The notes: generated by a model from the sequence alone, not told the origin. Positions 9,384 through 62,338 are shown, numbered from the stretch's first letter. The stretch: 64,000 bases of DNA from Candidatus Omnitrophota bacterium (GCA_018812925.1 JAHJCU010000005.1:70957-134956), one strand, 5' to 3'. Numbers and translations: made by a program.

Positions 9384-9441
9384 CAAAATAAAAAATTTAA
9401 AACAAAAATTAAAATCAAAAATAAGAAAGTTAAGGAGATAA

Positions 9442-14118: not shown

Positions 14119-14260
14119 GTCATTGCGAGCGACTGAAAAGAGCGCGGCGATCTCATGAGATTGCTTCACTTCGTTCGTCTCTAGAAATCTGCCCTCTGCA
14201 ATTTGAAAAATTGCGAGGACTAAGTCCCTGAAATTCCTGCGAATTTCTCAGGGCAATGAC
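14119..14260 (+). repeat. MITE-like element (family A, full-length copy). It has terminal inverted repeats GTCATTGCGAGCG...GGGCAATGAC and an internal ~66-bp triple-hairpin core.
   Basis: Core GCAATTTGAAAAATTGC-GAGGACTAAGTCCCT-GAAATTCCTGCGAATTTC-TCAGGGC. A homologous full-length copy is at 39241-39393, and core copies are at 35557, 44644, 44800 and 62221. Confidence 0.6.
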
Positions 14261-17266: not shown

Positions 17267-17400
17267 GAAAGTAAGAAGTTCAATGAAGAAGACTTTAGAC
17301 ATTAGACTTTGGACTCTGGATTTAAAAATCTTTTTTTGGGTAGTCTTAAGTCTAAGGTCTTTGGTCTATAGTCTATTCGCCAAAGGCGAATATTAAAATT

Positions 17401-32395: not shown

Positions 32396-32492
32396 TAGAT
32401 AAACAGATGACAGAAAACAGACGACAGAAGGCAGAAAAAATTCAACTATTATCTGATTTCTGTACTCTGACATCTGACTTCTGAATTTAAAC

Positions 32493-35523: not shown

Positions 35524-35556
35524 TAATAATTCAAGATTCCAGATTTAAGATTCCCC

Positions 35557-35616
35557 TAGAAATTGCGAAGCAATTTCAGGGACTGAGTCCCGGAAATCCT
35601 CCGGATTTCTCGGGGC
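35557..35616 (+). repeat. Family A triple-hairpin core copy.
   Basis: GAAATTGCGAAGCAATTTC-AGGGACTGAGTCCC-GGAAATCCTCCGGATTTC-TCGGGGC. Confidence 0.6.
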
Positions 35617-38075: not shown

Positions 38076-38299
38076 TGATATTTAATGAATAAAATGGATA
38101 ACTTTTTTCGTGTTGGAGGTCTGACTTCTTATAAACACGGTAAAGGTAATGAAGCCCGTATCGGTTAATTTACGTAACTCGTAATTGGTAATTAGTAATT
38201 TTTAAAATTACGGATTACGATTTACAGATTACCGATTACAAAAAAATGGGCATCGTAACCCTAACCAGGATAACGTTTCTTAAAGAAAGGAGATGAAAA

Positions 38300-39169: not shown

Positions 39170-39240
39170 TTAGAAAAGAAAGGTAGGGAAAATGGGACGG
39201 TTCTTTTAAAATAGAGTTGTCCCCTTTTCTATTAGTTCTT

Positions 39241-39393
39241 GTCATTGAGAGAGAGCGAAAGCAACCGAAGTAATCTAAAAAGCGAGATTGCCTGCCCGCA
39301 AAGATTTGGCAGGCGGGCTTTGCCTTTGGCTCGCCCCTAGGAATCTGGAAGATTTCAGGGACTTTAGTCCTGGAAATTCGTACGAATTTCTCA
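39241..39393 (+). repeat. MITE-like element (family A, full-length copy 2).
   Basis: GTCATTGAGAGAGAGCGAAAGC ... GATTTC-AGGGACTTTAGTCCT-GGAAATTCGTACGAATTTC-TCAGGGCAATGAC. It contains an inner CTGCCCGC/GCGGGC hairpin. Confidence 0.6.
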
Positions 39394-39607
39394 GGGCAAT
39401 GACACTTATTTTATTTGTATTAAACATTGGACATTTCATTAAGAACTAGAAATTGGTAATTAGAAATTTAAGTAGAGCAGAACCAAAAGTTCATAAATAG
39501 GCAACTACAAAGCAAGACAGTTTAGAGAGAGCCGCTTTTCTTTTCATATTACATTTCCGCAATTGTAAATCCTATTAAAATTGTTATATAATTCAATTTC
39601 TAAAGCC

Positions 39608-44328: not shown

Positions 44329-45261
44329 ATGTTCCATAAGCAAATTGTAATAATTGACAATAAGGAAATTGCCGCCGGTTATTTTGTTATGGAACTTATA
44401 TCTTCCCAAATAGCCCAAAATTCATTCCCCGGACAATTCCTCCATATAAAATGTTCTTCCGATTCCCAACCCTTACTACGCAGGCCTTTAAGTATACACA
44501 GAGTAATAGACAAAAAAACAATAGAAATCTTATACAAAGTGGTAGGCAAGGGCACTCATTATCTTTCCGAAAGAAAAAAGGGGGGGGAAATAGATTGTTT
44601 GGGTCCCTTGGGAAACGGATTTGAACTACCGAAAACCGAAAACCCCCTTAGAAATTCTATGGAATTTCAAGGACCAAAGTCCCGGAAATCTTTCAGATTT
44701 CTCGGGGGGAAACCGAAAACCGAAATTTTACTTGTTGCTGGCGGAATAGGGATAGCGCCTTTATTTTTTCTTATAGAAAGGATAACGAAAACCGATAACC
44801 TCCTTAGAAATTCTATGGAATTTCAAGGACCAAAGTCCCGGAAATCTTTCAGATTTCTCGGGGGGAAACCGATAACTGTATTTATTGGAGCAAAGACAAA
44901 AGATGAAATTTTATGCGCTAACGAACTTAAAAGTTTGGGAGTAGAATTACACATCGCCACTGAAGACGGTAGTATGGGATACAAAGGATTAGTAAGCGAC
45001 CTCTTGAAAAATAATCTGTCATCTGTCATCTGTCATCTGTCATCTGTTGTTTACGCCTGCGGACCGAAAGCAATGTTGAAAGAAATCGCTCTTATATCTA
45101 AAAAACACCAAATTCCCTGTCAGGTATCTTTCGAACAATTTATGGGATGTGGGATAGGTATATGCAATGCTTGTGTTATTAAAACCAAACATGGATATAG
45201 GCGGGTTTGTAAAGACGGTCCCGTCTTTAAGTCGGAAGAAATTGATTGGAATAAAATATAA
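44329..45261 (+). CDS. pyrK: Dihydroorotate dehydrogenase electron-transfer subunit. It carries three in-frame repeat insertions.
   Basis: FAD/NAD-binding 'RRPLSIHRV' and 'LLVAGGIGIAPL', plus a C-terminal 2Fe-2S 'CGIGICNAC...C'. At 310 aa it is ~50-60 aa longer than typical PyrK, owing to the duplicated 'LRNSMEFQGPKSRKSFRFLGGKP' peptide and 'SSVICHLSSV'. Confidence 0.8.
   Translation: MFHKQIVIIDNKEIAAGYFVMELISSQIAQNSFPGQFLHIKCSSDSQPLLRRPLSIHRVIDKKTIEILYKVVGKGTHYLSERKKGGEIDCLGPLGNGFELPKTENPLRNSMEFQGPKSRKSFRFLGGKPKTEILLVAGGIGIAPLFFLIERITKTDNLLRNSMEFQGPKSRKSFRFLGGKPITVFIGAKTKDEILCANELKSLGVELHIATEDGSMGYKGLVSDLLKNNLSSVICHLSSVVYACGPKAMLKEIALISKKHQIPCQVSFEQFMGCGIGICNACVIKTKHGYRRVCKDGPVFKSEEIDWNKI
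44644..44709 (+). repeat. Family A triple-hairpin core, in-frame within pyrK (copy 1).
   Basis: CCTTAGAAATTCTATGGAATTTC-AAGGACCAAAGTCCCGG-AAATCTTTCAGATTTC-TCGGGGGG, flanked by direct repeats GAAAACCGAAAACC / AAACCGAAAACC. Confidence 0.7.
44800..44865 (+). repeat. Family A triple-hairpin core, in-frame within pyrK (copy 2). It is 100% identical to copy 1 over 66 bp.
   Basis: Flanked by GAAAACCGATAACC / AAACCGATAAC direct repeats. Confidence 0.7.
45016..45043 (+). repeat. (CTGTCAT)x4 perfect tandem heptamer inside the pyrK coding region.
   Basis: ctgtcatctgtcatctgtcatctgtcat read directly. 28 bp is not a multiple of 3, but the frame is preserved downstream. Confidence 0.8.
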
Positions 45262-45287
45262 CGAGATTTCGGATTGCAGAGTGCGGA

Positions 45288-46244
45288 TTGCGGAATGAAA
45301 AAAGTCCGAAAGAAAATATCAAAATGAAAAATAAACAAAATCTTTCAGTTAAACTCGGGAATATAAAACTTCAAAATCCTGTTATCTTAGCTTCGGGAAC
45401 CTGTGGATTTGGTGAAGAGATATCGGAGTTTCTAGATTTAGGAAAAATCGGAGCGTTAATTACCAAGACAATCACGCTCAAACCTAAGGAAGGCAATCCT
45501 CCACCCAGAATTGCAGAAATCGAAGGCGGTATTATAAATTCAATCGGACTGGAAAATCCTGGAGTAGAAGTATTCATAAAAGAAAAACTGCCATTTTTGA
45601 AAAAAATAAAGATTCCATTTTTTGTAAGCATATCAGGCGAAACAGACGAAGAATTTGTAGAACTTGCAAGAATTTTAGACGGGCAAAAGCAAATAAGCGC
45701 AATAGAGCTTAATCTATCTTGCCCGAATTTGAAAAGAGGTAGGAATCTATTCGGGCAAGATCCAAAAATAACTTATAACATTATCAAAAAAGTTAAAAAA
45801 ATAACATCTATACCGATTATTGCCAAACTTACTCCGCAGGTAAAAAACATAACTGAAATAGCACTTGCCTGCCAAAAAGCGGACTGCGATATCATATCTT
45901 TAATAAACACAATTCCTGCAATGGTAATAGATTTAGCAACAGGAAAACCCTTCTTAGGCGGGATTACGGGTGGACTTTCAGGCCCCGCAATAAAACCTAT
46001 CGCATTAAAAATGGTTTATGATGTAGCAAAAACGGTAGATATTCCGATAATCGGATGCGGCGGAATAACAAGCGGCAAAGATGCGATTGAATTCATGCTC
46101 GCAGGCGCGTCAGCCGTATCTATCGGCACCGCAAGCTTAGTGTCTCCTGATTCTTCAATAGAAATAATAAAAGAAATAGAAGACTATCTCGTCCGGCACA
46201 AAATTGATTCTTTAAAAGAACTTGTGGGCAGCATTCACAAGTAA
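45288..46244 (+). CDS. pyrD: Dihydroorotate dehydrogenase catalytic subunit (class 1B).
   Basis: 'LSVKLGNIKLQNPVILASGTCGFG', 'NLSCPN' and 'IGCGGITSGKDAIEFMLAGASAV'. Confidence 0.85.
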   Translation: MRNEKSPKENIKMKNKQNLSVKLGNIKLQNPVILASGTCGFGEEISEFLDLGKIGALITKTITLKPKEGNPPPRIAEIEGGIINSIGLENPGVEVFIKEKLPFLKKIKIPFFVSISGETDEEFVELARILDGQKQISAIELNLSCPNLKRGRNLFGQDPKITYNIIKKVKKITSIPIIAKLTPQVKNITEIALACQKADCDIISLINTIPAMVIDLATGKPFLGGITGGLSGPAIKPIALKMVYDVAKTVDIPIIGCGGITSGKDAIEFMLAGASAVSIGTASLVSPDSSIEIIKEIEDYLVRHKIDSLKELVGSIHK

Positions 46245-50369: not shown

Positions 50370-50561
50370 AGTCATAATAAAATTAAATATCAAAAATCAA
50401 ATATTAAATATACATATAGAAATTTAAAAAGATAAAGCAAGCCAAATAAAATTTTATTAGTTGTCTTTTTTAATATTAAGCATCCCGTATCAAGAATCTT
50501 GTTTTTTATTTTGAATTTTAATATGTCATTTTGCATTTTACATTTTGATTTTTGCATTTGT

Positions 50562-62193: not shown

Positions 62194-62220
62194 AAAAATT
62201 ACTTTTATTAAAGATTACCC

Positions 62221-62280
62221 CTAGAAACGCATAGCATTTCAGGGACTAAGTCCTCGGAATCTTGCTAAGATTCCAGAGGG
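62221..62280 (+). repeat. Family A triple-hairpin core copy.
   Basis: CATTTC-AGGGACTAAGTCCT-CGGAATCTTGCTAAGATTC-CAGAGGG, followed by AAGATTC/GAATCTT low-complexity repeats. Confidence 0.55.
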
Positions 62281-62338
62281 AAAATTTAAGATTCGAGATT
62301 TTAAGAATCTTTAATCTTCAATCTTGAATTTTGAATGT

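Follow-up and report, generated by a model that had tools for sequence, protein, structure and literature searches.

The pyrK gene of a Candidatus Omnitrophota bacterium contains two in-frame copies of a small palindromic repeat that also occurs elsewhere in the surrounding DNA. The gene lies on a 64,000-nucleotide (nt) stretch of GCA_018812925.1 (JAHJCU010000005.1:70957-134956), referred to here as the window, and its product, PyrK, is a subunit of dihydroorotate dehydrogenase B. We interpret the two segments as derived, scarless, in-frame insertions of a 63-nt non-autonomous double-hairpin repeat into heptamer arrays that were already present in the gene, and we give this reading a probability of about 80%. 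The inserts are a genuine feature of the gene, neither an assembly artifact nor an ancestral domain. The open reading frame (ORF) survives because the unit of 63 nt corresponds to 21 codons and to nine heptamers, because the reading frame used (..LRNSMEFQGPKSRKSFRFLG..) is free of stop codons, and because both loops that carry the unit lie between core secondary-structure elements. Given this length, in-frame survival is the default outcome for a canonical copy.

The identity of the gene is secure. The protein has the ferredoxin-reductase fold, the four-cysteine 2Fe-2S domain, and the pyrD neighbor that define PyrK. Pfam matches the domain DHODB_Fe-S_bind (PF10418) at residues 269-305 (2.8e-16) as well as the NAD-binding domain PF00175, and the cluster cysteines C274, C279, C282, and C294 are invariant. 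An earlier reading of this DNA from its sequence alone (the sequence-only reading) had held that the ORF and the Fe-S motif are intact despite the insertions, and these matches bear it out. The DHO_dh gene, pyrD, lies 3' of pyrK in the order pnp-dut-pyrK-pyrD. The closest solved structures are the Lactococcus PyrK chains 1EP1_B and 5KSW_B (1e-33), and the HMMER alignment to solved PyrK falls into three blocks that leave query residues 103-131 and 156-180 unaligned.

These two unaligned regions hold the repeat. Positions 44646-44709 and 44802-44865 form an exact 64-nt repeat within pyrK, where 0 such matches are expected by chance, and a looser similarity between the two copies extends over 101 nt at 93%. 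When cut to the canonical 63 nt, the copies differ by 1 nt. Both are read in the same codon phase, so that the peptide LRNSMEFQGPKSRKSFRFLGGKP appears at residues 107 and 159, the duplication that had been noticed from the sequence. The repeat and its frame thus stand as first described; the original figures of 66 nt and 100% identity do not, as 65 of 66 positions agree, the exact run is 64 nt, and the unit is 63 nt. Of the six reading frames that the pyrK copy offers, three are open. Every same-strand coding copy of the family reads in the LRNSMEFQG frame, in numbers too small to interpret.

Comparison with orthologs indicates that the segments were gained. The 21 closest PyrK homologs, which are 64-84% identical over aligned columns, include 20 without the insert peptide; the exception, P0002 (contig L004), has the peptide at site 2 only. 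The nearest ortholog, P0001, is 262 residues long, shares 84% amino acid identity, and is missing both inserts. It is found on three contigs (L001-L003) that have the same pnp-dut-pyrK-pyrD order as the window and shared blocks of 90-96% nucleotide identity. DNA alignment of the window with L001 gives excesses of 63 nt (site 1) and 75 nt (site 2), which together with 2 C-terminal residues make PyrK 48 residues longer than P0001, and not about 55 residues longer as had been estimated. Because the nearest ortholog lacks both inserts at this identity and in the same gene order, the inserts can be taken as derived. The same 63-nt unit is present between genes and in unrelated genes, which marks the pyrK segments as insertions. 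On these comparisons, the view that the segments are an inserted dispersed palindromic repeat, and not ancestral PyrK sequence, is supported.

To place the inserts on the fold, an AlphaFold2 model of PyrK was built on 120 homologs. Its mean predicted local distance difference test score (pLDDT) is 87, with values above 90 in the core, whereas both inserted stretches score 54-61 and are without secondary structure. Insert 1 sits between strand 87-94 and strand 133-138, and insert 2 separates the first helix of the NAD domain from strand 182-188. Superposition of the model on PyrK structures, including 5ksw_B, gives template modeling scores of 0.84-0.85 (normalized to the target). The prediction that the inserts fall in surface loops is therefore upheld by the model. 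With loops of low pLDDT, an intact core fold, and invariant cysteines, the inserts are most simply seen as additions to the loops of an intact enzyme, if they are translated. The PyrK loops of other relatives carry unrelated small inserts, including a GC-rich hairpin, and these sequences indicate that the variable loops are general insertion hot spots. The GC-rich hairpins (CCTGCCCGC...GCGGGCAGG type) make up a second small family, in-frame in the PyrK loops of relatives. They were seen at L004:10380-10436, at L004:10640-10720, in the third loop of the pyrK of contig L122, and at window positions 39290-39330, where the hairpin adjoins the repeat copy at 39.3 kb.

The sites of insertion are themselves repetitive. 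Heptamer arrays encode each of the three variable loops in the PyrK orthologs, which explains the 7-residue periodic peptides in these proteins. Site 1 is occupied by (ACCAAAG)x5 in L001 and by (NCAGAAN)x5 in L004, 35 nt each, and removal of the 63-nt unit from site 1 of the window leaves five heptamers, again 35 nt. Site 3 is built from CTGTCAT-, CTCATCA-, or CTCTACT-type units. The CTGTCAT tandem that the sequence-only reading placed in pyrK is indeed a perfect array, of 4.9 units, but it does not lengthen the protein: the array at 45014-45047 is as long as the degenerate array of L001, and the microsatellite therefore adds nothing to the 48-residue excess. Period-7 arrays are common throughout the window, with 23 Tandem Repeats Finder (TRF) rows compared with 1.9 in shuffled sequence (about 12-fold), as are period-14 arrays (8 compared with 0.55). 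They have many different unit sequences and are mostly intergenic (for example, 9385-9422, 17290-17376, 32401-32484, 38181-38239, 45265-45294, 50374-50559, and 62305-62336); among the long ORFs of the window, pyrK alone has arrays inside it.

The junctions show how the unit sits in these arrays. In 19 family copies with an array on each side, continuity of the 7-nt period over the junction is maximal when exactly 63 nt are removed (92/133, compared with 22-62 at other offsets). Because the 63-nt deletion restores the 7-nt phase, there is no target duplication. The flanks of the family are enriched about 11-fold for period 7, and flanking repeats of at least 7 nt occur as direct repeats in 14% and as inverted repeats in 20% of 108 copies. 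The direct repeats that had been noticed beside the pyrK copies are present, but their reading as target-site duplications (TSDs) does not hold. Since the empty orthologous sites already carry arrays and the phase continues across the unit, the flanking repeats are split array units, not duplications made by insertion.

Outside pyrK, the repeat belongs to a widespread family. With a covariance model derived from 72 distinct copies, the window yields exactly six, two inside pyrK and four between genes (Table 1), so that all four intergenic copies first reported at 14.2, 35.6, 39.3, and 62.2 kb are recovered; the same model finds zero copies in L001-L003. A sequence pattern derived from the window copies gives five matches in the window and more than 115 loci in a collection of species-representative genomes, often with many copies per metagenome-assembled genome (MAG). 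By record title, the hosts among the matches listed are Omnitrophota, Ratteibacteria, Sedimentisphaerales/Planctomycetia, Syntrophaceae, UBP3, and one Aenigmatarchaeota MAG; pattern matches in L013, L017, L081, L088, L103, and L105 were judged to be chance and left out. The modal length of the unit is 63 nt (51 of 79 copies). A scan of the window against Rfam at the gathering threshold returned tRNAs only, with the family unmatched, and in E-value mode every match to one intergenic copy (35.4-35.8 kb) had E >1.

The consensus of the family is 5'-CCCyn-A-GAAATTnn-loop-nnAATTTC-n'y'GGG-AC-NNN-GT-CCyn-G-stem-loop-stem-n'y'GGG. A model of two hairpins pairs 96.6% of cells across the 72 copies, whereas slid controls all reach 63% or less. 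Pairs 4-27, 5-26, 40-63, and 41-62 covary, switching among CG, UA, and GC, with 0-3 unpaired cells of 72. A triple hairpin, the fold suggested by the sequence-only reading, fails this examination of covariation: in a cloverleaf with a closing stem, 31/72 copies leave pair 4-63 open and 46/72 leave pair 5-62 open, and the central stem is without double changes. Two adjacent inverted hairpins are supported instead. The right hairpin mirrors the left in inverted form, so that the unit amounts to an inverted pair of hairpins resembling repetitive extragenic palindromic (REP) sequences, set around a short variable spacer. Copies show no preferred orientation with respect to neighboring genes (26 vs 18; 18 vs 13), which argues for an element acting at the level of DNA and not for a strand-specific RNA. 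The right-hairpin loop is TTC in the window copies (44692-44694) and GAA in the L004 copy (L004:10484-10486). Loops that are complementary in this way (GAA/TTC, AAA/TTT) are seen repeatedly in the family, which suggests loop inversions.

Table 1. Features of the window that concern pyrK, the repeat, and the heptamer arrays
Feature	Position	Strand	Description
pyrK ORF	44329..45261	+	310 aa; electron-transfer subunit of dihydroorotate dehydrogenase B; 2Fe-2S motif intact
Double-hairpin element, copy 1	44645..44707	+	63 nt; in-frame, codon phase 1; residues 106-127; covariance model 74.3 bits, E 3.5e-18; linker between FAD and NAD domains; pLDDT 54-61; +63 nt vs L001 and L004
Double-hairpin element, copy 2	44801..44863	+	63 nt; same codon phase as copy 1; residues 158-179; covariance model 70.7 bits; between first helix and second strand of NAD domain; pLDDT 55-61
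(ACCGAAA) array, left part	44628..44644	+	Split by copy 1; TRF period 7, 2.4 copies, 100%
(ACCGAAA) array, right part	44708..44727	+	TRF 44710-44725; phase 6/7 after 63-nt deletion, continues across element
Left flank of copy 2	44786..44800	+	Heptamer-like, ACGAAAACCGATAAC
Right flank of copy 2	44864..44878	+	Heptamer-like, GGAAACCGATAACTG; partly homologous to L001 empty site
(CTGTCAT/ATCTGTC) array	45014..45047	+	Perfect, 4.9 units; encodes LSSVICHLSSV, third array-bearing loop
Intergenic family copy	14192..14253	-	Downstream of tRNA; covariance model 70.9 bits
Intergenic family copy	35553..35615	+	Upstream of gatB; inverted heptamer arrays on flanks; covariance model 87.3 bits
Intergenic family copy	39334..39396	-	Adjoins GC-rich hairpin; covariance model 67.6 bits
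Intergenic family copy	62218..62280	-	Heptamer arrays after copy; covariance model 68.8 bits

Copies of the family also lie in-frame in other genes whose domains were confirmed by Pfam: miaB, hypF, cobT, and rlmN. The copy in the MiaB-type methylthiotransferase occupies one shared site in three related genomes (L025, L187, and L188), the HypF copy is in L192, the CobT copy in L023 belongs to another subfamily, and the RlmN copy in L061 is on the opposite strand. Between these three genomes the miaB copy matches at 61-62 of 63 positions, and in the two comparisons that involve L025 the coding DNA beside it is only 78-84% identical. The right-hand heptamer units have changed in concert (AAAACCG, AAACCCG, and AACCGAT). 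Altogether, 17 of about 100 family copies fall inside long ORFs, some of which are spurious, and the coding share is about 5-10%. A copy in a prepilin-like gene (L004:8085-8147) was not counted as coding, as it is probably a 5' leader with an in-frame TTG start after the element. A protein-database query with the doubled insert peptide returned one protein, from an index too coarse for a census.

Full-length 63-nt elements were also seen on IMG/VR viral contigs (L211, L212, L213, L214, and L215). The contig with the copy at L214:1073-1135 (IMGVR_UViG_3300009311_000038) carries genes for terminase, portal, protease, and major head protein; at least one of these host contigs is therefore a real phage, and phage are a possible vehicle for distribution of the element across phyla. 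Repeats of another widespread type (GTCATTGC...GAAGCAATCTC) are found at window positions 14140-14200 and 39240-39275, adjoining the 14.2-kb and 39.3-kb element copies, and in L114 an element copy lies between 29-nt direct repeats of this type.

How might such a unit spread? We propose that it could move as single-stranded hairpin DNA handled by a trans-acting enzyme, for which a Y1/HUH-type transposase would be the obvious candidate; template switching or gene conversion between similar arrays would be an alternative route. Heptamer arrays may be preferred landing sites because they could slip, expose single strands, and mark places that tolerate extra sequence. The syntenic 20 kb of the nearest relative (90-96% nucleotide identity) is without all three window copies between 39 and 45 kb, and from this comparison it appears plausible that the repeat has been active since divergence from the nearest relative sampled.

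Several observations weigh against insertion of a mobile unit as we describe it. Within the roughly 0.8 Mb around copies, the 115 element loci contain no Y1_Tnp gene, and the neighbors of these 115 copies include no recurrent gene family and nothing transposase-like. Relatives do encode proteins like REP-associated tyrosine transposases (RAYTs), but what brackets these genes is another inverted repeat, 16 nt long (GGGGACGGTTCTATTT), rather than the element. The subfamily in pyrK abuts CCGAnA-type heptamers in 7/15 loci, compared with 3/62 for other subfamilies, and the similarity between the two pyrK copies extends about 95-100 nt, past the 63-nt unit; both findings favor copying together with array units, or gene conversion, over target-blind transposition. 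The orthologous miaB copy is identical at 62 of 63 positions, with flanks at 79-83%, and a decaying selfish insert should not stay so much more conserved than its surroundings. Finally, no presence/absence polymorphism was seen within the population, as two independent assemblies have an identical gene. The claim of recent, possibly ongoing activity is thereby divided: the copies missing in the relative speak for activity since the split, whereas polymorphism is not observed. A scan of metagenomes for strain-level presence or absence did not return a near-identical pyrK.

An assembly artifact, or a chimera formed at the repeat, is a concern because the source DNA was assembled from a metagenome and because the identity between the pyrK genes of L004 and L122 falls exactly at insertion site 2, from identical sequence over about 430 nt to about 88%. 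Recombination at the repeat could have produced this breakpoint, as could chimeric assembly of the metagenome. For the window itself, the identical 310-residue PyrK is recorded on five contigs, and GCA_018823485.1 and GCA_018822305.1 have the same pyrK with 100% and 99.98% DNA identity over 4.8 kb. Recovery of the gene and its context in independent assemblies, which answers the doubt raised by the sequence-only reading, makes an artifact unlikely. Moreover, the 92 nt that separate the two copies are unique, conserved PyrK sequence, the reading frame is kept, and comparable in-frame copies occur in other assemblies; we regard this explanation as extremely improbable. Very improbable also is classical transposition of a MITE (miniature inverted-repeat transposable element) with an 11-bp TSD, AAACCGA(A/T)AAC. 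Direct repeats do flank both pyrK copies, and the 75-nt excess at site 2 could be parsed as 64 + 11. However, the excess at site 1 is exactly 63 nt, arrays already exist at the empty orthologous sites, the phase is continuous in the 19 array-embedded copies, and direct flanking repeats of at least 7 nt are no more than a 14% minority among 108 copies, with inverted ones at 20%. The two putative TSDs would also have near-identical sequence at two different sites, and a transposase with terminal inverted repeats (TIRs) is not associated with the element.

The remaining alternatives concern the agent that mobilizes the element. Spread without any transposase, in which the element and its heptamer units are copied between similar arrays by template switching or gene conversion with the units as homology arms, has some claim on our attention, though we would not favor it. 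It would account for the association of subfamily and array unit and for the extended likeness of the pyrK copies, and it agrees with an L025 copy that is 97.8% identical over 89 nt, flanks included, with the perfect (hence young) arrays beside copy 1 where the ortholog units have diverged, with the concerted change of array units between orthologs, and with the conservation of the element far beyond that of its flanks. Yet most family copies are without arrays or shared flanks, homology arms of 7-20 nt are very short, and the strong selection that preserves covariation suggests recognition of structure, which recombination alone does not need. Mobilization as a REP system by the RAYT of the lineage seems to us rather unlikely. 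The unit, with two inverted REP-like hairpins and a short variable spacer, matches the definition of a REPIN (REP doublet forming hairpins; PMC8049555), its copies are numerous and mostly extragenic, and relatives encode matches to NCBIfam REP_Tyr_transpos (82.3 bits in L001 and 75.6 bits in L004; cutoff 80). The L004 gene lies between two element copies, and in L201 a copy is 850 nt away. Nevertheless, GGGGACGGTTCTATTT and not the element brackets the Y1 gene in five contexts (L004, L201, L203, L206, and L208), the nearest element copy to those genes is 600-1000 nt off or missing, the roughly 0.8 Mb around the 115 copies is free of Y1 genes, the GTAG or CGTC tag is missing, and the two hairpins, left and right, fail to pair with one another. 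No Y1_Tnp gene was found in the 64-kb window either, which nonetheless has near-identical element copies. At 39193-39224 of the window, GGGACGGTTCTTTTA is joined directly to AAATAGAGTTGTCCCC, so that the 16-nt inverted repeats found on either side of the RAYT-like Y1_Tnp gene meet back to back; because L001 and L004 carry that gene at the syntenic position, the site seems to have been emptied. A module of DNA or RNA with a host function, kept by selection (a protein-binding, structural, or regulatory hairpin), with the coding copies as by-products, is improbable. Its structure is kept across phyla with compensatory changes, and the orthologous miaB copy is 98% identical where the flanks are 79-83%. 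Against such a module stand the missing orientation bias, the missing Rfam match, the presence and absence of copies at syntenic sites between close relatives, and the location of copies within loops of enzymes, in which regulation would be difficult to envisage.

The insertions in pyrK invite comparison with known small repeats. The parallel that had been drawn to Rickettsia palindromic elements (RPEs) is apt, as an in-frame palindrome encoding a conserved peptide is found twice in pyrK and in miaB, hypF, cobT, and rlmN. RPEs are palindromic repeats of about 105-146 bp (PMC3184786) that lie in-frame in Rickettsia genes (Ogata et al., summarized in PMC10969869 and PMC3184786). The element resembles them in being a dispersed palindromic repeat that is in-frame in unrelated housekeeping genes and also intergenic, and in adding a conserved peptide at fold-compatible positions. 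It differs in its unit of 63 nt, about half the RPE size, in its hosts (Ratteibacteria, Omnitrophota, Planctomycetota, and phage, not Rickettsia), in the small share of its copies that are coding, and in the tie between insertion and heptamer arrays. By size and host, it does not belong to the RPE families.

Similarity to REP doublets, known as bacterial interspersed mosaic elements or REPINs, lies in the two inverted imperfect palindromes, in the many, mostly extragenic, non-autonomous copies, and in the RAYT-type gene of close relatives. REPINs are made up of two REP units, inverted relative to each other, with a short variable spacer (PMC8049555), REP units carry the tetranucleotide GTAG or CGTC at one end (PMC3733652), and REPIN-RAYT pairs are described as vertically inherited (PMC8049555; PMC3733652). 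In contrast, each half of the element folds alone, left and right halves do not covary as a long hairpin would have them do, its units start with GTCC/GGAC at the doublet center, the RAYT-like genes are not flanked by it, and the family spans several phyla and phage. Bacterial MITEs such as ERIC/RU, Correia, and those of Anabaena are likewise small, non-autonomous, and stably folding, and some form in-frame ORF fusions (PMC3184786, PMC2759123). MITEs are defined by TIRs related to insertion sequences and by flanking target duplications (PMC3184786). The ends of the element (CCC.., ..GGG) pair within their own halves, and because it has neither TIRs nor TSD, it is not a MITE.

For the targeting of arrays, the closest analogy comes from cyanobacteria. 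The genomes of Nostocaceae are rich in heptanucleotide arrays of short tandemly repeated repetitive (STRR) sequence. The small dispersed repeats (SDRs) of this family, the subject of work by Elhai and colleagues in 2008, reportedly often lie within tandem heptameric repeats, without target duplication. Only this association with arrays is shared, as the element is a 63-nt double hairpin of unrelated phyla. SDRs are confined to Nostocaceae and have units of 21-27 nt (PMC5861425). Heptanucleotide arrays are the most abundant class of long simple sequence repeats (PMC4679880). By these analogies, the element resembles RPEs and REP doublets, yet it is smaller than RPEs and distinct.

The insertions in PyrK extend selfish DNA inside protein genes, so far known mainly from Rickettsia, to free-living candidate phyla, and they join two poorly understood features, heptanucleotide arrays and small hairpin repeats, with the arrays as putative landing pads that would mark permissive loops. 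They account for odd lengths and low-complexity peptides in the PyrK, MiaB, HypF, CobT, and RlmN annotations of Omnitrophota-like MAGs, and recombination or chimeric assembly is likely to have its breakpoints at such repeats. The mobilizing activity is a concrete target for biochemistry. A bolder idea, which we consider speculative and rather doubtful, is that the element represents an undescribed class of mobile DNA that crosses phyla, is possibly borne by phage, integrates without scars and specifically into arrays through a mechanism dependent on hairpins or arrays, relies on neither TIRs nor the known RAYT-REP pairing, and is held under a nucleotide-level constraint that exceeds the constraint on host coding sequence. 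If this were true, it would be a general source of 21-residue loop insertions in the housekeeping enzymes of uncultured bacteria.

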